A DNA stretch of 64,000 bases, from assembly GCA_012441205.1 (NCBI GenBank), contig GCA_012441205.1_4705.1; one strand, 5' to 3'. Each line of letters begins with the position of its first letter. Position 1 is the stretch's first letter. The notes beneath the pieces were generated by a model that worked only from the letters and a program-made list of their open reading frames with translations, did no database searches and was not told the DNA's origin. Positions 5,258 through 47,333 of this stretch are shown piece after piece. The translations under genes and the position numbers were made by a program. Source of the DNA: a phage.

Positions 5258-5313
5258 AAGGTAACGTTATACGTCGCCTTCATGACTGTCATCATGAAGG
5301 TAATATAGTCCTG
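5258..5313 (-). promoter_or_regulatory. tandem promoter-like motifs (AAGGTAACGTTATACGTC and AAGGTAATATAGTC on + strand; minus strand reads ...TATATTACCTT)
   Basis: Same motif family recurs at 18418, 30976-31038 and 59181, each just upstream of a minus-strand gene block. Confidence 0.45.
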
Positions 5314-8780: not shown

Positions 8781-10271
8781 TTATTTTTTACTCGGACGAT
8801 TCAATGCGGGTACCGGGTTCTTTGGTTGCTTTGTCTTTTCATCCATCCAGTACGGGAAGTACTCACCAGTACGCATACGCAATAAGTCCATTGTGGACAG
8901 GAACGGCAGCGGGTTAGGATCGTCCAGATACGTCCAGTAACCACGCGTGTTTAACAATACATCCCAATCGAAACCTTTTGCTTTAAGATCGTCGTACAGT
9001 TCCTGTGGGGTGCAATACAGCTGTGGGTTTTCGTAAACCTCTTGACGCCAGAGATTATGCATTTGACACAGCTCCGACGTAATTTCCAGAGCACGCTGTA
9101 AATACTCATCCTCTTCGCAGAGAGAACGAATGGTCGTACGCTGCAACGCAACATCCGGATAAATATCCAAATATACCGTTGAAGCACCATCAGCTGACTT
9201 ACCACCTGACGCATGCATACCCCAACCACGCATCCAATCTTTATCACGCAGGTAGTGGTATTCCGTTAATGATGGTTTAACCCCTTCGCTCTGACTAACC
9301 ACAATCGGGAACGGTAAGCCGGTGGGTCCGTTTTTAGCGCGCATGTTAAAGACTTGAATCAACTGCAGATCGGTATCCCCGATAAGGTTGTCACCAGGCC
9401 CACGCGGATAAAGGACGCGTTTATCCGCGTTCTGAAGAATCGTCAGTTTATCGATTTTCCAGAGGTTATTCGTATAAAACGTGAAGCGTTCCGGGACGTT
9501 CTTAAACTTCTCATCGCCCTTAAACCCTTTCAGTTTTCGTACCGGTTGCTGTCCCGGCATACCACCAACGTTTACACCGTCACCAAGGTGGGCGGTCATG
9601 GTAATGTAGATACCCGCCGACGCTGTGAGTACTGGCATCTGTGATAGAATCTGGCTTTTCGCAGCTGCTGAACGCATCGCTTCAGCATTCAGTTTTGCGC
9701 CACCCGCGGTTTCTTTATCGAACAGTGCATCAACGGCATCGATTGGTAATCCAGAGAAACTGTCGATGAGTACAACGGTCGGCAACCACCAGGTATAGTT
9801 CTCACCGTGTTTATTAATAAACGGAACGGCTTTGCGTTGAGATTTATCTTTGACCTTGTCGTCACGGAATTTCTTAATCGCATCAAACCAAATGTTACCG
9901 CTCATCTGAACAGCATCGGTGATAAACACACGTTCTTCTTCGAAAAGATCGACACCTGCGATATTAGACATGTTCATCGCAAGCGTTAAGATACGTGTTG
10001 TCGTTAACGACATTTCTGTGTCGTAAACGCTACTATTGCTGTTTGCGTAACGATCGATAACGCGTAACAAGCGAAACATTATGAACGTGGTTTTGTTCAT
10101 GTTGCCGCGAGCGCCTGCGCCCTCAACAAGCATCATGCCGCCGTTACAAATGCTTTCACCGTGTTTACCGACATAGTACCGACCACCAGATGTGGGAATA
10201 TCCATTAAGCAACCAATGTTGAGATTAAAACGCATCTCTTCACCAGGAGAAAGGTACTTATTAAGATTCAT
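8781..10271 (-). CDS. hypothetical 496-aa protein, possible RecA-fold NTPase with atypical P-loop
   Basis: NGGMMLVEGAGARGNMNKTTF resembles RecA GG...hhhhEhxG....KTT, and TVVLIDSFSG resembles Walker B hhhhDS; P-loop is non-canonical. SD AAGGAG upstream. Confidence 0.3.
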   Translation of the reverse strand: MNLNKYLSPGEEMRFNLNIGCLMDIPTSGGRYYVGKHGESICNGGMMLVEGAGARGNMNKTTFIMFRLLRVIDRYANSNSSVYDTEMSLTTTRILTLAMNMSNIAGVDLFEEERVFITDAVQMSGNIWFDAIKKFRDDKVKDKSQRKAVPFINKHGENYTWWLPTVVLIDSFSGLPIDAVDALFDKETAGGAKLNAEAMRSAAAKSQILSQMPVLTASAGIYITMTAHLGDGVNVGGMPGQQPVRKLKGFKGDEKFKNVPERFTFYTNNLWKIDKLTILQNADKRVLYPRGPGDNLIGDTDLQLIQVFNMRAKNGPTGLPFPIVVSQSEGVKPSLTEYHYLRDKDWMRGWGMHASGGKSADGASTVYLDIYPDVALQRTTIRSLCEEDEYLQRALEITSELCQMHNLWRQEVYENPQLYCTPQELYDDLKAKGFDWDVLLNTRGYWTYLDDPNPLPFLSTMDLLRMRTGEYFPYWMDEKTKQPKNPVPALNRPSKK

Positions 10272-15858: not shown

Positions 15859-15890
15859 CCCTCCTCCTTCCCTGTTGGGTTGGAGGAGGG
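15859..15890. terminator. nested hairpin element (reverse orientation) between convergent genes
   Basis: CCCTCCTCC-ttCCCtgttGGGtt-GGAGGAGGG; reverse complement is nearly identical to the copy at 43673. Confidence 0.55.
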
Positions 15891-15904
15891 TTATGCTGTC
15901 AAGC

Positions 15905-18392: not shown

Positions 18393-18417
18393 GATTGAAA
18401 TCTCGCTGGCTTACTTC

Positions 18418-18438
18418 ACTTAAGTAATATAGCCGTGA
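18418..18438 (-). promoter_or_regulatory. promoter-like motif (TTAAGTAATATAGCCGTGAAA on + strand; TATATTAC core on minus strand)
   Basis: About 30 bp upstream of minus-strand gene 17736..18392; same family as 5298, 31018, 59181. Confidence 0.45.
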
Positions 18439-18542
18439 AAAATGTTGGATTAAGTTAAATACCGCAACCGCAGCTAATTTTATAGGCTTTTAGCCTAAAC
18501 CAATCATCTTCGGAATCATCATCTTTGAAACAGGAATCTATC

Positions 18543-19364
18543 ATGGAAAAAGTATTTGTTTGTAAGTTGTTTACCAACGGCAATAGCCAACCAATGTATC
18601 TGACCGATCCTGTTCTAGGTAATCGGAACAGTACCGTATTCAAAGAGGCTTTCGAATACGCTAAAAATAAAGCCGTGAGAACACTGACGTCTGATGACTG
18701 TATCAACGGTATCACGTGGGCAGAGTTAATCGGTGATGCCGTTCGACACTTCGTTCGGGATGCGAGAAAACGGGAAATCTGTCTCACGACTATTGTTGTG
18801 CGTGAAAACGCAGAAATTTTATCAAACGTTTTGGTTGATTTTAATGACGTTTGTGTGTTTAATCCAGAGAACACGTTTGAACAATACCTTACTGCCCTGA
18901 ACAACCAGCTCGGTAAAGATATTCATCCCGAATTCGCCAAGTTAACATATCAGTTACTTTTTGACGACGTCGATCCAAATACGAAGATCGATACCAGCTT
19001 ATCGCCCCTGGTAAAGAAATACGGATCGGTTCTCGCTACGGCAACACCCACCACCGATGGTGGTTATGATATCGAATTGGATGATCCATTAAAAGAACAA
19101 GAGCCTACTGGGGTTAGGGCGGTACATCACAACCTCGTCGTTAAATCTGATGGATGCGATGAACATTACGCTATGATAAACGATGAAAACAATTACCGTT
19201 TAAGTCAAGCGATTGGTGTTCTACGCTATACCGAACCCACTGTTGTAGACGATTATACATCGACAACAACGCACACCACGTGTTTCATTTTCATCTATCC
19301 CAATGAAAGTGTGTACATTACCGACTGCTATGGCAATACCGTAGATAGCTTACGTCGTTATTGA
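18543..19364 (+). CDS. hypothetical protein
   Basis: Track ORF from 18525; ATG at 18543 has AGGA 8 nt upstream. Confidence 0.55.
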   Translation: MEKVFVCKLFTNGNSQPMYLTDPVLGNRNSTVFKEAFEYAKNKAVRTLTSDDCINGITWAELIGDAVRHFVRDARKREICLTTIVVRENAEILSNVLVDFNDVCVFNPENTFEQYLTALNNQLGKDIHPEFAKLTYQLLFDDVDPNTKIDTSLSPLVKKYGSVLATATPTTDGGYDIELDDPLKEQEPTGVRAVHHNLVVKSDGCDEHYAMINDENNYRLSQAIGVLRYTEPTVVDDYTSTTTHTTCFIFIYPNESVYITDCYGNTVDSLRRY

Positions 19365-19370
19365 TTATCG

Positions 19371-19398
19371 AGCCTGTCCTTCGGGGCAGGCTTTTTAT
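19371..19398 (+). terminator. rho-independent terminator
   Basis: AGCCTGTCC-ttcg-GGGCAGGCT followed by TTTTTA, directly after the stop of 18543..19364. Confidence 0.75.
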
Positions 19399-19473
19399 GC
19401 TGTTAAATATCAGGAATAAGAATTAACAAAATAGGAAAATGGTGTGTATATAACACAAAGGAGGGAGATGATT

Positions 19474-19590
19474 ATGTTACTCATTCTAATGGAGAGAGCA
19501 TTGCTGGCGGGTATCTGCGCATTCTCTGTTAAACACGCTGTTGCTATCATGGCTGAAGAAAGGCGTAATACGCATAATGTATTACGCTGA
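19474..19590 (+). CDS. small hydrophobic peptide (38 aa), unannotated short ORF
   Basis: Strongest SD in the window (AAGGAGGG) 6-7 nt before ATG; MLLILMERALLAGICAFSVKHAVAIMAEERRNTHNVLR. Below the ORF-track size cutoff. Confidence 0.4.
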   Translation: MLLILMERALLAGICAFSVKHAVAIMAEERRNTHNVLR

Positions 19591-19658
19591 AAACACTGTG
19601 TGCATTAGTGTATGACGAGAAATCGTCGAGGCCCCCGTCTTCACGAGGGCCAACACCT

Positions 19659-20009
19659 ATGCATGATTATTCATCGTCTGTTAAACAAAAGGTTATAAAC
19701 ATGAGCAATTTGAACGTTGAATTTACTTCAACAACGCCTGTCATGAATGGTGTTGGCACTGAAACCAAAATCGTATTAGAACCCATTCCAGGGTTACGCG
19801 ATCTCGGTGATTTTTATCCACTGATGCCGCGTATACGGAAGGCCTTAAACAGTATCGATCTTGATTCCAATAAAGATTTCCAACACGATACAGAAAATAC
19901 CGATCATGTATTGCTGCCATCAGGGATCGCAAAATTCACCTACACGCAAACATTGAAAGCCTCTGATGGTGAAATCCGTCGTTTTATCGTTGAAGTAGAA
20001 AGCGCATAA
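19659..20009 (+). CDS. hypothetical protein (start uncertain: 19608 GTG, 19659 ATG or 19701 ATG)
   Basis: Track ORF 19608..20009; internal ATGs at 19659 and 19701 have weak SD-like sequences. Confidence 0.45.
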   Translation: MHDYSSSVKQKVINMSNLNVEFTSTTPVMNGVGTETKIVLEPIPGLRDLGDFYPLMPRIRKALNSIDLDSNKDFQHDTENTDHVLLPSGIAKFTYTQTLKASDGEIRRFIVEVESA

Positions 20010-20013
20010 AAAC

Positions 20014-20045
20014 CATCCTCCCAACCCGTAAGGGAAGGGAGGATG
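20014..20045. terminator. nested hairpin element between convergent genes
   Basis: CATCCTCCC-aa-CCCgtaaGGG-aa-GGGAGGATG with GNRA-type GTAA tetraloop. Confidence 0.6.
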
Positions 20046-20062
20046 AAATATGCCGTTAAACG

Positions 20063-20692
20063 TTATTCAACAAACCCTGCATTCAACAGATTGTCGTAAA
20101 CACGATTAGCGACATCAACAGGAGAATGTGTGTTACTGGTATCTATACGCAGCGTTTTCGCGTCGCCGAGATAGTCCATAAAATCCATGTAACGATAACG
20201 TCGTTTATTGAATGTCGCTTCATCGATGTTATCAAACATCTGATGTTTAGCGTGACGAACACGGAACCGCCTTAAATACGTAGGATAGTCGATATCCAGA
20301 TAAACATAGTAAGACGGCATGATAATCGACGGTAGGTTCGGCAACAATGCGTCAAACAACTTAACGTTGGCATCATTAACCTGATAAACATACGTCGAAG
20401 CAATCGAACGATCGCTAAGCACAGTCTTCCCTTCGTTAAGGGCTGGATGAATCACCTTGTTGAAGAGATGATTACGTTGCGACATCATCGCCAATAGTTC
20501 AGTTTCTGGATCGAATCTGTTCGTTGGTGTCTGATCTTCCAGGATAAGTTTACGAATGGCTTCTCCGTAGAGCGTACCACCGGGTTCACGTACGACACAG
20601 ACGTTGTTTAAACGACTGTGTAAAGACGAGATAACCGAACTCTTTCCTGAATAATCCAGACCTTCAATAACGATATATTTATTACGAGACAT
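20063..20692 (-). CDS. tmk: thymidylate kinase (dTMP kinase)
   Basis: KYIVIEGLDYSGKSS (P-loop), REPGGT, VLSDRSIASTYVYQ match the Tmk motif order; start placed at MSRNKY. Confidence 0.8.
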   Translation of the reverse strand: MSRNKYIVIEGLDYSGKSSVISSLHSRLNNVCVVREPGGTLYGEAIRKLILEDQTPTNRFDPETELLAMMSQRNHLFNKVIHPALNEGKTVLSDRSIASTYVYQVNDANVKLFDALLPNLPSIIMPSYYVYLDIDYPTYLRRFRVRHAKHQMFDNIDEATFNKRRYRYMDFMDYLGDAKTLRIDTSNTHSPVDVANRVYDNLLNAGFVE

Positions 20693-22583: not shown

Positions 22584-23395
22584 GGTGTTACAACAGCCTC
22601 TACTGACCATGGGAAGGTTTTCGCAACAACACCTTCCAGGAAGCGTTCAACTTCCGATTGCTCATACACCGAAAGCTTTTCGAACGGCGTTTGGTCTTCG
22701 GTTAAACCTATCGCGTGAATAGGACCCAGGTCTTTAACCAGAGTGACTTCGCCTTTAACGCCTTCGCGTTTAACGATGATCGCATGATCATTAACCTTGG
22801 GATCATACAGCACGCGCATCATGGTTACCGCGTCATCCGGTTCATGACCGAAATCGATGGCAACACGAGCATTCGTCCCTTCATCATCCAGAAGCTTGCT
22901 CAGCGCTTTACAACGGTCTTCAATCCAATCCAACGCAACCACGGTTTCTTGGCGTAGCTGAACCTCAACTTCTTTTCCTTGTTCGTCGATACGTTTCACG
23001 GTAACAAAATCGTGTAATAGGCGGTCAGGAAGGAGGGAAGCAATAAGCTCAATGTTGGGTTCAGGTTTTTCGTTTTCCAGAATGATGGTCGCTTGTGCGT
23101 CCAGATGTTCTTTAAAACGGATGTAGCGCGTTAATCGCAGAACTTCATCTTGGGATTTTGCGTCTTCGGGAATAATCTCCGTCATGACGTTATAAATCTT
23201 TTCAGCGAACGTCGGAATTACGGTGATTGTAATTCGTGCTGGTGTACCACGCTCCTGGTACTCATCGGCTAACTTCTTCGCCATCCCGTTAAAGTAGGTC
23301 TGGAGAAACGGTTGCTGCGTTAAAAACATTTTCTCCAGATCGGAATAGCGATGCTTGCGTGCATGGCCTAGCTTCTTCATGGGTTTTTTCATCAA
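22580..23395 (-). CDS. hypothetical protein (no metallophosphatase motifs, so not an obvious SbcD/Mre11)
   Basis: 271-aa ORF between the SbcC-like gene and the RuvC-like gene. Confidence 0.55.
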   Translation of the reverse strand: MMKKPMKKLGHARKHRYSDLEKMFLTQQPFLQTYFNGMAKKLADEYQERGTPARITITVIPTFAEKIYNVMTEIIPEDAKSQDEVLRLTRYIRFKEHLDAQATIILENEKPEPNIELIASLLPDRLLHDFVTVKRIDEQGKEVEVQLRQETVVALDWIEDRCKALSKLLDDEGTNARVAIDFGHEPDDAVTMMRVLYDPKVNDHAIIVKREGVKGEVTLVKDLGPIHAIGLTEDQTPFEKLSVYEQSEVERFLEGVVAKTFPWSVEAVVTP

Positions 23396-25984: not shown

Positions 25985-27073
25985 ATGAGCGACCTGGCAA
26001 CAGACAATCGCACAAAAGGGAGTCAGCTAGCTCCAGACAACAACGTAAGCGTTTTCCGTATCTATGCCTTGGGTACTGTTGCTGCCGACTTTTCCAATAA
26101 AAGTCTGGAGGAAGATCCTAACCAGACGCTGGAGGTCTTTCTTGATGAGATGATGTCAGGCGCTGATGGGAAAGTTGAAGCGGTGGGAAGCGTTAAAGAA
26201 GTCAGTGCAACAGACGCTCAAGGGAACAGCTATACGGCGAAAGCGGCAACAACAACCAGCATACAGTGTTACTGGTTACCCTTCGGCAGTAACCGGATGA
26301 CAGCACCTAACTTGAGGAAAGGTCAGCGTGTGGTGGTTTGGCGTACCGCGGATGAAGAACAACTCTATTGGCAACCCAAAGGAGGGGATAGCGAGCTGAT
26401 GACCATGGAATCGGTTATCCTCACCGTCAGCGCACGTCCTAGCGCCAAGAAGGACCGTAAATCGATTTCAACGGAAGACTGCTATTACCTAATGGTTGAT
26501 ACCTTCCTCAAGAAAGCGGTTATCGGCACCAGCGCACAGCTTGGTGAAGTTACCCAAGTCTACATGGAACTTAATCTGGACGAGGGTTACCTACAGGTTG
26601 CGGACAGCGTTCATCAAAATCTGTTGTTACTCCATTTTGTCGAGCATATGCTGCGTTATCAAAACCAGGACGACAGCATCATCGACGTGACAAAAAAGAA
26701 CATCACGTTCCAGTGCGAGGATACGCTCAAAGCAATCGCTAAGAACGATATCCGAATGAAAGCAAAAAATATTTATACGGAATGTGAGAACTTTGAACGT
26801 ACCAGCAAAACAGAAAGCGTTACGAGTCAGAATGTTTCTTTGAAGTGTGATCGTTACACCGCGCAAGTATCAGGACAGACCACGTTTAAATGTCCTAATA
26901 CGGTATTCACTGGAGCTGTAAGCTTCACAGGTGAAGACGGAAACACGATGACGTTGAATGGGAACTTCGTACACATCGCAGGCTCTTGGCGTTCACCAAC
27001 CGGAACAAACGTATACACCCACGATCACGGTGGTGTAGATCGTGGTAGCGGTCGTACAGACCCGTTCCAATAA
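25985..27073 (+). CDS. hypothetical protein, possible baseplate central-spike (gpV-like) with His-rich apex
   Basis: AGGAG 8 nt upstream of ATG; C-terminal NVYTHDHGGVDRGSGRTDP recalls the HxH iron-binding tip of P2 gpV / phi92 gp138-type spikes (from memory). Confidence 0.3.
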   Translation: MSDLATDNRTKGSQLAPDNNVSVFRIYALGTVAADFSNKSLEEDPNQTLEVFLDEMMSGADGKVEAVGSVKEVSATDAQGNSYTAKAATTTSIQCYWLPFGSNRMTAPNLRKGQRVVVWRTADEEQLYWQPKGGDSELMTMESVILTVSARPSAKKDRKSISTEDCYYLMVDTFLKKAVIGTSAQLGEVTQVYMELNLDEGYLQVADSVHQNLLLLHFVEHMLRYQNQDDSIIDVTKKNITFQCEDTLKAIAKNDIRMKAKNIYTECENFERTSKTESVTSQNVSLKCDRYTAQVSGQTTFKCPNTVFTGAVSFTGEDGNTMTLNGNFVHIAGSWRSPTGTNVYTHDHGGVDRGSGRTDPFQ

Positions 27074-30890: not shown

Positions 30891-31717
30891 TTAAAAAGTT
30901 CCTCTGTTTCACGTTAATTAAACAACGTATTGATTTCTATTTGACAGAATACGAACATCGTACGTATCTATCACTTAGGTAACGCTTACGCGTCGCGTTC
31001 ATGATACCATGCATCATGAAGGTAATATAGCCGTGAAAGGATTTGTGTTAACGCAAGGGTTTTGTTTGTTTTTTAAGAAGGGATGGATTTAGAAGAGGTG
31101 TTTCAAGGAAGGTAAACGAGAATAGGTATTTTGATTTAAGTAAGATGTTATCTGTATCCGTTAGAAGTGTATTGTCTAAGTTATCTTGTTTATCTTAGGT
31201 TTAATCGTTTTTATCTTGGTATGTTTAAGTTGTTTTTATTTAACTGTTAAAATGCTTATCTTCAAAACAATGGATAACATGTGTTTACTACGCTCGTTGA
31301 GTTATAACTCAACGGTAACACATGTCATCTGTGCATTACACTACGTTACATGCTAGTTAAATCGGATAACTCAAAAAAACATTTGTGATACTCTTCTTCA
31401 CGTTGTTCATCAGAGTATCTCGTCTATACTCATTGCATTCGTATACGACATAACCGTTACACGCTAACGCTACGCTTATAGCTTGATAACTCTAAGGATA
31501 AAAACATAAACTCGCTTCGCTCGTTTAGTTTTTCTTTTTCTTAGAGTTATCCTGTTGCTCGTCTCTAAAGGACTTCGCTCCTCCCCCGTCCCCCGAAGGG
31601 GCCGAGGTCGTGGAAATTTTACTTTCCAAATACATTTACAACATCTGTAAACTTTTACTCCAGGTACTTAATCTTATCATTAGAAATTATAAAAGAGAAA
31701 ATAAACACAAACATAAA
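30891..31717. other. AT-rich ORF-free region with direct and inverted repeats (candidate origin / promoter cluster / ncRNA locus)
   Basis: About 830 bp with no ORF of 60 aa or more; five TTATCT(T/G) repeats (31150-31260), GGATAAC/GAGTTATC repeats, palindrome CGTTGAGTTATAACTCAACG; no tRNA-like T-loop seen. Confidence 0.5.
30976..31038 (-). promoter_or_regulatory. tandem promoter-like motifs (TTAGGTAACGCTTACGCGTC and GAAGGTAATATAGCCGTGAAA on + strand)
   Basis: Minus strand reads CACGGCTATATTACCTTC; 90-130 bp upstream of minus gene 30108..30890. Confidence 0.45.
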
Positions 31718-33339: not shown

Positions 33340-33632
33340 TAAGCACATAGAGCAATAGTATGGGTTTTGTACAGCTCGGCTATTGATCTTCTACAATTTG
33401 GTTGTAACAATCTGCGTGGTTGCACGCTTATCTTTCTCATTGAACGCTTCGTATGAAGCGTGGTGTTGAAAGGGTTGTGGATCTCCTCAAGCGGCCAGGG
33501 ACCCAGACCAACCTGAATAAACACAAACACATGTTAAGCCCCTCCTCATCCGTTATTGGGTGGGGGGGGTCTTATACGTCTTTATGCGTTCCGTTCGTTC
33601 TGGAGCGTTTTAGGACGGTTTATGATGGTGTT

Positions 33633-43662: not shown

Positions 43663-43672
43663 CCAAACATAA

Positions 43673-43704
43673 CCCTCCTCCAACCCGTAAGGGAAGGAGG
43701 AGGG
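43673..43704. terminator. nested hairpin element (archetype copy) between convergent genes
   Basis: CCCTCCTCC-aa-CCCgtaaGGG-aa-GGAGGAGGG: perfect 9-bp outer stem, symmetric AA bulges, 3-bp inner stem, GTAA tetraloop. Confidence 0.65.
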
Positions 43705-46397: not shown

Positions 46398-47333
46398 TTA
46401 GCCTTGTTCTTCTGGAGAACGACCCTGGAGGCTTGCGGTATGTCCGTCGACGTTGTAATAGAAAATCAATGGACCGCCGACAGCAGTACAGTAGTTTTCA
46501 TCCAGACTGATCTCGATACCGTATTGGTAACCTGCTCGTGCTGGAATACGTCCACCTAACTCGCCGTTGAAAGCCACTTTAGCGTTATACAGGTTATACG
46601 GTGCGATGTTGTCGTCTAATACCCAACGATCGGTAGTCATTTCAGCCAGAAGATCGGCAACCACCACATCGCTAATAACGGTACCTGTTACCAGCGAAGC
46701 CAGCAGTTCACCGTAATCAGAGGTATCACGACTGTAACTGTAAATCTCACCGCTAGCGCGTACGCCTTGACCAAAGAACTTAAGACCATCCAGCTCCTTG
46801 ATCGCGATAATATCATCAAGATTCGGTACACGCGACTTCATCAAGATACGAACGCTCCCCGTCCAAGCCAGGCAGTTAGATGCGACACGAAGCAATTGTC
46901 CGTTAACAGTATCCCAGTTAAGTTCGTCGTTGACGATTTCTTCCGCGGTAAGACCAAGACCGAAACGTTCTTTGATGATAGGCCAGATATCACGCATCTT
47001 GGCGGCGTCTGGCGCATCGATAAGAATAGGCGCTACGTTACGCAGATACGCACCGATATTGATACGATCGTAATACAGCGTCGTCGAACCTTCATAATCG
47101 TCTAACTCGGTAAGCTTAGCGGTTGCTGTCGCCGTAATCTGGGTGTCGCGCTCATAGGCGCTTTGGTTGGTGGTTGGTGTTCCTAAAACCAATAATTCAG
47201 GGGTTAGGATATGCTCTCCGTTCTGAGGTGGGTTATCGTGGTTGATAAGACCATACACGAGATCGGATGAGGGTAAAGAGACGTCGACCGGGTAAAGTTC
47301 GGTGTCGTCAATAGTTGTTACCGTATCACTCAC
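46398..47333 (-). CDS. YYDR-domain paralog family member
   Basis: LYYDRINIG ... LAWTGSVRILM ... DENYCTAVGGPLIFYYN. Confidence 0.6.
   Translation of the reverse strand: MSDTVTTIDDTELYPVDVSLPSSDLVYGLINHDNPPQNGEHILTPELLVLGTPTTNQSAYERDTQITATATAKLTELDDYEGSTTLYYDRINIGAYLRNVAPILIDAPDAAKMRDIWPIIKERFGLGLTAEEIVNDELNWDTVNGQLLRVASNCLAWTGSVRILMKSRVPNLDDIIAIKELDGLKFFGQGVRASGEIYSYSRDTSDYGELLASLVTGTVISDVVVADLLAEMTTDRWVLDDNIAPYNLYNAKVAFNGELGGRIPARAGYQYGIEISLDENYCTAVGGPLIFYYNVDGHTASLQGRSPEEQG

Follow-up and report, generated by a model that had tools for sequence, protein, structure and literature searches.

The question raised by this locus is whether a short open reading frame, lying between a terminator and the next gene of a phage genome, encodes a functional peptide, and what part the RNA around its stop codon plays. 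The window, which was the whole stretch of 64,000 nucleotides analysed (contig GCA_012441205.1_4705.1), had been given a preliminary description from its letters alone. There the ORF was singled out for a hydrophobic product and a strong ribosome-binding site, and a holin-like, toxin-like or regulatory role was suggested.

Layout, relatives and transcription of the locus

Over positions 18400-20100 the window shared 97.1% identity with Escherichia phage vB_EcoM_Goslar (MK327938 / NC_048170). This E. coli jumbo phage is a chimallivirus and forms a nucleus; a window position could be obtained by adding 15864 to the Goslar position. From about 19448 to 19670 both sequences were the same, nucleotide for nucleotide. 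By identity, equal length and synteny, the flagged ORF belonged to the orthologous group of Goslar_00006 / HOV27_gp006 (QBO63799.1, YP_009820691.1), which was annotated as 'hypothetical protein' of 38 aa. The DNA of the ORF and its 38-aa product were 100% identical to those of gp006, and so was the DNA of the RNA block described below. In Goslar the gene order was gp005 with an annotated terminator (-18.8 kcal/mol), gp006, gp007 and then a convergent thymidylate kinase gene. The small ORF was located in an intergenic gap of 336 nt, and the preliminary description had correctly put it after a canonical terminator and before the next gene. The features of the gap were as follows.

19370-19398, plus strand: intrinsic-type terminator after the gp005 homologue, with a 10-bp G+C-rich stem, a UUCG loop and a T-run
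19413-19433, plus strand: AT-rich block GGAATAAGAATTAACAAAATA upstream of the small ORF, with only 2 variable columns in 22 genomes
19458-19465, plus strand: Shine-Dalgarno (SD) sequence AAGGAGGG, read from the sequence, with the strongest duplex among 43 annotated Goslar genes
19468-19473, plus strand: upstream in-frame ATG and one variable codon, read from the sequence and the 22-genome alignment
19474-19590, plus strand: small ORF of 38 codons and TGA, product MLLILMERALLAGICAFSVKHAVAIMAEERRNTHNVLR, orthologue of Goslar_00006 / HOV27_gp006
19562-19588, plus strand: hairpin of 11 bp with a 5-nt loop, from folding and the 22-genome alignment
19589-19600, plus strand: unpaired linker of 12 nt, the most variable stretch within the conserved block (19595-19597 and 19600 vary)
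19601-19663, plus strand: three-way junction of 63 nt, from folding, z-score and conservation
19664-19700, plus strand: poorly conserved spacer of 37 nt with 1-nt indels and the weak SD of gp007 (AAAGG), from the alignment
19701-20009, plus strand: gp007 homologue of 102 aa, from Goslar homology, always downstream of the small ORF

The window and 21 related loci from IMG/VR, ENA, Logan, NCBI and JGI made up a set of 22 genomes, in which positions 19300-19760 were aligned. The lowest nucleotide identity to the window was about 87% (L024 and L007), and the total divergence among the Goslar-like relatives was 13% or less. The terminator hairpin was invariant in 21 of the 22 genomes, with L023 carrying a 1-nt deletion in the 3' arm. 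The AT-rich block occurred once in the window and could serve as a promoter or 5'-UTR element, a putative assignment. Every locus of sufficient length had this gene order; gp005 was missing only in L008, where it was largely deleted while the terminator, the small ORF, the RNA block and gp007 were kept. The small ORF and gp007 co-occurred in every locus covering both. The SD with the small ORF, the hairpin with the junction, and gp007 are thus a unit inherited together.

The distribution of the locus was narrow. A word-indexed search of 5.8 billion proteins gave nine cluster representatives of the peptide, all of 38 aa and 84-97% identical, and an exhaustive HMMER profile search of 1.84 billion representatives returned only the peptide's own family and one spurious match to a 492-aa protein. 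Against Pfam and PHROGs the peptide had no match at E <= 1. Among 50,697 phage records, blastn in distant mode and tblastn matched the intergenic DNA, the peptide and gp007 only to Goslar, and these phage-record searches gave no homologue of gp007 beyond the Goslar-like phages; gp005 had only weak matches, in Erwinia phages. Synteny in more distant chimalliviruses was therefore unusable as evidence.

In the published Goslar RNA-seq at 30 min, gp006 had 111, 137 and 117 reads in control cells (10.1101/2023.09.20.558163, Sup. Table 2). When ChmA (chimallin, the nuclear shell protein) was knocked down, which arrests infection at an early stage, its tabulated value was 1 in each replicate (10.1101/2023.09.20.558163). 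Under the knockdown gp005, gp007 and gp008-gp013 behaved like gp006, while gp001-gp004 were unaffected, gp004 being early, and in the per-gene counts gp006 and gp007 had a similar level and the same nucleus-dependent behaviour (10.1101/2023.09.20.558163). Since the reads were present in control cells and lost on ChmA knockdown, the region is transcribed and falls into the nucleus-dependent (middle/late) class; the non-virion RNA polymerase is presumably responsible. The published counts are per gene and cannot place a transcription start (10.1101/2023.09.20.558163), and placement of a promoter by reads per nucleotide was abandoned, because counts on a 117-nt feature were inflated by overlapping reads. 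A candidate early-promoter core, CTAYATTAC, had 4 matches against 0.8 expected, one of them 41 nt upstream of gp004. It was absent near the small ORF and the region was silent in early-arrested infection, so an early promoter used by the virion RNA polymerase was rejected for this ORF. For phiKZ the late-promoter core is TATG with +1 at the G (PMC4666361). The T-run of the terminator ended in an invariant TATG (19396-19399), and TATG also occurred at 19610 and 19658; as a late promoter the 4-mer at 19396-19399 is a candidate only and carries little weight.

The small ORF and its product

Two in-frame ATGs were present, at 19468-19470 and 19474-19476, with a TGA stop at 19588-19590, so the 38-40 codons of the preliminary description were both correct, the first ATG giving 40 codons and the second 38. 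The GGAGG core lay 9 nt from ATG 19474 and 3 nt from ATG 19468. ATG 19474 was the start in the Goslar annotation and the choice of every gene caller, and the codon between the two ATGs was highly variable in the relatives (ATT/ATC/ACT/AAC). ATG 19474 is the likely start of the small ORF, and 19468-19473 is probably spacer instead of coding sequence, because the first ATG is only 3 nt past the SD core.

The duplex of AAGGAGGG with the 3' end of 16S rRNA reached -12.1 kcal/mol, the best of the 43 annotated Goslar genes, the next being -11.3. The preliminary description had called this the strongest ribosome-binding site in the window, which held among annotated genes and not beyond them: in a scan of all contexts in the window with ORFs of at least 30 codons, five start contexts, unannotated or variant, were equal or slightly stronger (-12.6 to -13.0), one of them the GTG of the gp034 homologue at 47333. 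Three copies of AAGGAGGG were found in the window, at 19458, 23030 and 26379, and only the one at 19458 lay at the start of an annotated gene. By the Goslar annotation, the copy at 23030 was inside the gp011 homologue on the opposite strand; that at 26379 was inside the gp013 homologue and was followed by an internal ATG (26399). AAGGAGG occurred 10 times in 128 kb. A strong SD well spaced from the ATG of a 38-codon ORF in a 336-nt gap is unlikely by chance (about 5e-4, a rough estimate and not a computed value).

Failure of the frame to be conserved in related genomes, together with lack of a translation signal, had been named beforehand as what would speak against the ORF. Instead, all 22 genomes kept the frame open at a length of 38 codons, in 19 distinct nucleotide versions, and the SD core and both ATGs were conserved (at least GAGG in all, and one genome with GTG at the second start). 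The open frame itself was uninformative, since the probability of no stop was about 0.85 under random placement of the substitutions. The antisense frame sharing the wobble positions was also open in all 14 genomes analysed, so conservation of an ORF is by itself uninformative at this locus.

The substitutions gave a mixed answer as to whether the frame is coding. Those shared by at least two genomes were 9 synonymous and 6 non-synonymous, with 4.3 synonymous expected under random placement of the same mutation types (P about 0.01), and in four of the five alternative frames only 2-4 of the 15 shared substitutions were synonymous; the antisense frame sharing wobble positions, at 8/7, was nearly as good. 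All 32 substitution events together (14 synonymous, 18 non-synonymous) did not differ significantly from random placement (P = 0.10), and the singleton changes looked neutral (5 synonymous, 12 non-synonymous). Pairwise pN/pS was 0.57 for the small ORF, compared with 0.12 for gp004, 0.17 for gp005, 0.07 for gp007 and 0.01 for thymidylate kinase. Its variable columns were distributed 11/5/9 over the three codon positions, with no third-position bias, against 3/4/28 in gp007, and nucleotide diversity of the ORF body equalled that of the upstream non-coding leader (pi 0.036-0.058 in both). Taken by itself, the pN/pS estimate suggested no coding signal; the split into shared and singleton changes showed this to be partly driven by singletons in near-identical metagenome assemblies.

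In the most divergent lineage, L024 (with L007), the ORF had 7 synonymous changes and three conservative replacements (M to I, A to T, R to K), and E7, R8, K20, E28 and E29 were invariant across genomes. The codon-frame likelihood score was +7.1; 38-codon pieces of real genes scored 11.2 +/- 4.8 in frame and -22 out of frame, and random open ORFs scored -0.05 +/- 4.6, with 6% of them reaching the value of the small ORF. Codon usage was mildly better than chance, 6-10% of controls being as high. All these coding tests were low in power, because the divergence among the relatives is so low. The patterns suggest that the small ORF is probably a real gene on which purifying selection is weak to moderate, with substantial uncertainty since the relatives are so close. 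Conservation of the peptide C-terminus is partly apparent, because the overlapping RNA hairpin explains part of it.

The product was largely hydrophobic, as had been proposed, with 23 of 38 hydrophobic residues and a GRAVY of +0.61. Its N-terminal 27 residues were hydrophobic, with the conserved E7, R8 and K20 and the nearly conserved H21, and its C-terminal tail was polar and basic. AlphaFold, with an alignment of 10 sequences, predicted a single continuous helix over residues 2-37 (mean pLDDT 84). The best 19-residue Kyte-Doolittle mean was 1.97, the classical cut-off being 1.6. The charged pairs E7-R8 and K20-H21 interrupted the hydrophobic part, leaving a longest uncharged run of 11 residues, and the summed unweighted Hessa insertion energy was positive (+1.7 to +2.3 kcal/mol in the best 15-19-residue windows). 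A transmembrane helix is possible in view of these predictions, and is not confidently predicted because of the short uncharged run and the positive insertion energy.

The predicted RNA structure over and after the stop codon

The best-conserved part of the intergenic region was 19562-19663, which was predicted by RNAalifold and single-sequence folding to form a hairpin, a linker and a three-way junction. The hairpin, with 9 Watson-Crick and 2 G-U pairs, spanned the last nine codons of the small ORF and the first base of its stop, and every pair was kept in 22 of 22 genomes; its two one-sided changes, G-U to A-U and C-G to U-G, left the pairing intact. The junction was closed by the helices UGCAU/AUGCA and GUGU/ACAC and carried two arms, GACGA-GAAA-UCGUC and the G+C-rich GGCCC.CGU-CUUC-ACG.GGGCC. 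None of its 22 pairs was broken in the 20 genomes covering it. It varied in three columns: 19635 in the bulge, 19652 at a junction base, and 19663, where U-A became U-G. Positions 19556-19668 folded at -42.5 kcal/mol (z = -5.2 against shuffles).

Counted over the 33 pairs and the 22 genomes, every one of the 682 pair-cells was a standard pair. Only 10 of 102 columns varied, 7 of them unpaired (hairpin loop, linker, bulge and junction base) and 3 paired and wobble-compatible. The two changes C-G to U-G and U-A to U-G would give A-C mismatches on the minus strand, which indicates a plus-strand RNA as the conserved form and not DNA or an antisense transcript. In a set of 14 genomes about 5% of the block columns varied; for third codon positions of the genes on either side the share was 24-47%. 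Such low variation indicates that the block of about 100 nt is under strong selection at the nucleotide level, much stronger, judging from the aligned sequences, than that on the peptide. There were 0 compensatory pairs, the stems being invariant; since the stems never vary and give no covariation, the structure is a well-supported prediction and is not proven. That the ORF was already annotated as Goslar gp006, and that its 3' end lies within an RNA structure better conserved than the peptide, had both escaped the preliminary description.

No known RNA family was found for the block. Rfam 15 gave no match at gathering thresholds over the whole window, and the sole matches of a permissive search were noise at the terminator, with E no lower than 1.2. 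ARAGORN predicted no tRNA or tmRNA, a covariance-model search of the window gave no structural paralogue of the block above noise, and short-word blastn showed no repeats of the intergenic region in the window. The structure was not recorded in Rfam or in the Goslar literature searched. A long-range pairing between the start of the small ORF and the gp007 leader, present in the minimum-energy fold, was rejected, as it was not conserved in L024, L021 and L022.

The gene after the block, gp007, encodes a virion-associated protein with about 250 copies per virion by mass spectrometry (10.64898/2026.04.21.720040). Its SD duplex was -3.8 kcal/mol, the second weakest of the 43 genes, and 110 nt separated the stop of the small ORF from its start. 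The 37-nt spacer bearing this SD was the least conserved stretch, and no conserved pairing with the SD was found in the 22-genome alignment. A longer gp007 whose N-terminus would lie inside the conserved block (a 133-aa ORF from 19608) was rejected, as 1-nt indels broke the frame in many genomes.

Possible roles of the ORF and the RNA block

We lean, at somewhat better than even confidence, towards a small ORF that is a genuine protein gene and overlaps, at its 3' end, an RNA element acting in cis within the gp007 mRNA. The small ORF would be the first cistron of a nucleus-dependent (middle/late) transcript continuing into gp007. Ribosomes would load at the strong SD (19458-19465) and start at ATG 19474, and the product would be a single helix of about 36 residues. 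It could be a lineage-specific accessory peptide, acting through its hydrophobic helix interface at a membrane surface or on a partner protein, and would be neither a holin nor a toxin. The RNA block may act in cis on its own mRNA, influencing its stability, its processing or the translation of the weakly initiated gp007. A ribosome that completes the small ORF would have to open the hairpin and should cover the mRNA as far as the base of the junction, so translation of the small ORF and the structure are probably functionally linked.

The main rival, a plausible though rather unlikely account, is a regulatory upstream ORF, in which the act of translating matters and not the peptide. The SD would capture ribosomes on the exported late mRNA, and translation to the UGA would remodel the hairpin and the junction, thereby setting translation or stability of gp007. 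Such an account would suit a peptide that evolves much faster than the neighbouring proteins (pN/pS of 0.57 against 0.01-0.17) with neutral-looking singletons, the strongest SD adjoining the second-weakest, a stop codon within a conserved hairpin with the conserved junction directly after it, the inheritance of ORF, RNA block and gp007 as a unit even where gp005 is deleted, and the confinement of both ORF and gp007 to the Goslar lineage. However, the excess of shared synonymous changes and the invariant charged residues suggest that the amino-acid sequence matters, 110 nt with a stable junction is long for termination-reinitiation, and the predicted pairing between the start and the gp007 leader was not conserved. 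In nucleus-forming phages transcription (in the nucleus) is physically apart from translation (in the cytoplasm) (PMC12908238), so classical transcription attenuation is excluded and only remodelling after export is left. We think it improbable that the ORF is not translated at all and is incidental in a conserved, structured non-coding RNA, which would be the long 5' leader of gp007 or else an independent small RNA, stable or processed, of about 19560-19665, with the SD-like purine run as a structural or protein-binding element. This would explain why the best-conserved part (19562-19663) is conserved as nucleic acid and runs seamlessly across the stop codon, why the ORF body is no better conserved than the leader and has no third-position bias, and why the antisense ORF is equally preserved in the 14 genomes analysed; in addition, the gp006 accession and the tryptic peptide ALLAGICAFSVK were not among the rows listed from the Goslar virion mass spectrometry table, which covers virions only (10.64898/2026.04.21.720040). 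Against it stand the perfect SD at ideal spacing from a conserved ATG of a 38-codon frame, estimated as improbable by chance, the shared substitutions and codon usage that favour this frame over four of the five alternatives, and the lack of an Rfam match or of a second copy in the window.

It is very improbable that the peptide damages membranes, either as a holin/antiholin-like lysis timer or as a type I toxin-like product with a structured mRNA restraining its translation, although its 38 aa, hydrophobic N-terminal part, basic C-terminal tail and Kyte-Doolittle mean, its nucleus-dependent (middle/late) expression and the strongly structured mRNA would all agree with such a role. The uncharged run of at most 11 residues and the positive insertion energy speak against it. 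No lysis cassette was nearby: the neighbours were gp005 (no assigned function), gp007 and thymidylate kinase, and the peptidoglycan-domain gene gp024 was 14 kb away. No homology to a holin, toxin or defence-related family was found in Pfam, PHROGs or the exhaustive profile search, a scan limited to sigma-70-type promoters gave none on either strand near the ORF that could drive an antisense RNA, and no toxin- or antitoxin-associated Rfam RNA rose above threshold or noise. Thus the holin-like and toxin-like suggestions of the preliminary description found no confident membrane span, no lysis context, no Pfam or PHROG match and no relatives beyond the Goslar-like phages behind them, while the regulatory one is still a live option. 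A bolder reading, which we consider quite doubtful, is that ORF, hairpin and junction together form one translation-responsive or protein-binding RNA device specific to nucleus-forming phages, with the ORF as ribosome entry and sensor. That such a device would control stability, localisation/export or translation of an abundant virion protein on exported late mRNA is just as speculative; if true, chimalliviruses would possess a cis-regulatory RNA of a new class.

Among nucleus-forming phages Goslar serves as the model for E. coli. The mRNAs of such phages must exit the phage nucleus before they are translated, and to our knowledge almost nothing is known about cis-acting RNA signals in such phages. 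The structure, about 100 nt in length and with every pair intact across 22 genomes, precedes a gene that encodes an abundant virion protein and has a poor SD; it is a testable candidate for such a signal. The small ORF is already annotated and lineage-restricted, and small phage ORFs and structured leaders are known kinds, so the interest is modest unless the RNA element controls expression or export of late mRNAs in nucleus-forming phages.

Compared with Goslar gp006, which has the same 38 aa and the same synteny, nothing of substance was different; the gp006 record comes without function, translation evidence or RNA structure. Hok, LdrD, TisB and AcrZ-type peptides are helical and hydrophobic, with 20-50 aa and a basic C-terminal tail, and are made from structured mRNAs with a strong SD. 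The small ORF shares size class, helicity, hydrophobicity, tail, SD and structured mRNA with these type I toxins and small membrane proteins, but it has no sequence or RNA-family match, an antisense RNA gene was not detected and a membrane span is not confidently predicted; it also belongs to a lytic phage, being expressed late from a phage RNA polymerase. In erm/cat leader peptides, and in translational coupling by the opening of a structure, upstream ORFs control the downstream cistron through mRNA structure. The likeness to the erm/cat type lies in a short ORF with an efficient SD before a gene with a poor one, a stop codon in a stable conserved hairpin, and a weakly constrained peptide; the differences are the gap of 110 nt, the lack of conserved pairing that would occlude the gp007 SD, and the impossibility of transcription-coupled attenuation. 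T7 RNase III sites, the T4 gene 32 leader and ompA-type 5' hairpins are structured elements that stabilise or process mRNAs. The Goslar block has no sequence or Rfam relationship to these, it overlaps a coding region and any processing is only putative, yet it has in common with them a stable conserved hairpin and a multi-helix element directly upstream of a highly expressed structural gene.

Deletion of gp005 and retention of the downstream unit

In the Goslar-like locus L008 (ENA ERZ28649724, scaffold_1), most of gp005 was lost through two separate deletions.

equivalent to 18537-19319 of the window: sequence deleted in L008, in two pieces

Since the gene was largely deleted in this genome, gp005 appears to be dispensable. 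L008 retained the final ~45 nt of gp005 and, likewise intact, the terminator, the small ORF (the 38-codon orthologue of Goslar gp006), the RNA block (the predicted hairpin and three-way junction) and gp007; thus the unit from the small ORF to gp007 is independent of gp005.

Extent and boundaries of gp007

19608-20009, plus strand: extended gp007 reading frame, open upstream to a GTG at 19608 (133-aa ORF)
20013-20045: hairpin CCATCCTCCC...GGGAGGATG, in the gap separating gp007 from the convergent thymidylate kinase gene

On the aligned sequences, the conserved form of gp007 is the 102-aa product starting at 19701, because 1-nt indels in an A-run (about 19684-19688) disrupt the upstream extension in Goslar, L011, L013, L015 and other relatives, by which the 133-aa form was ruled out. 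The gp007 start was annotated inconsistently among the relatives, with gene callers giving a 116-aa product from an ATG at 19659 in L009 and L010. The hairpin that follows gp007 is probably a bidirectional terminator.

Antisense and other short ORFs

19410-19550, minus strand: antisense ORF of 46 codons that overlaps the small ORF
33437-33532, minus strand: 31-aa mini-ORF, MCLCLFRLVWVPGRLRRSTTLSTPRFIRSVQ, with the SD-like site GAGGAGGGG 7 nt upstream
about 15875-15895, plus strand: 19-mer GGGTTGGAGGAGGGTTATG, copy 1
about 43666-43686, minus strand: 19-mer GGGTTGGAGGAGGGTTATG, copy 2

Each of the 14 genomes analysed kept the antisense ORF open, since the wobble positions of this ORF are common to the sense frame. 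Lacking a Shine-Dalgarno (SD) sequence and with a poor codon score (-2.8), it demonstrates that a preserved ORF on its own is no evidence of coding at the small-ORF locus. The 31-aa mini-ORF, whose SD-like site is very strong, lies just downstream of the gene with a peptidoglycan domain (gp024 homologue), overlaps an annotated terminator region, and is probably spurious. The two copies of GGGTTGGAGGAGGGTTATG are far apart and on opposite strands, and each provides a strong SD-like site preceding a short ORF.

Candidate promoter-related motifs

The motif CTAYATTAC occurred four times in the window (0.8 expected), and is a candidate early-promoter core for the virion RNA polymerase.

5300-5308, minus strand: CTAYATTAC
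9601-9609, minus strand: CTAYATTAC
18424-18432, minus strand: CTAYATTAC, 41 nt upstream of gp004 (an early gene)
31022-31030, minus strand: CTAYATTAC, upstream of the gp021 homologue
17690, 25950, 49835 and others: TTATATCGTT-like motif

With one mismatch allowed, the TTATATCGTT-like motif gave 13 matches against 6.8 expected, about a twofold enrichment, which weakly suggests that it may be a promoter-related element; in Goslar it was found upstream of gp013, gp035 and gp003.
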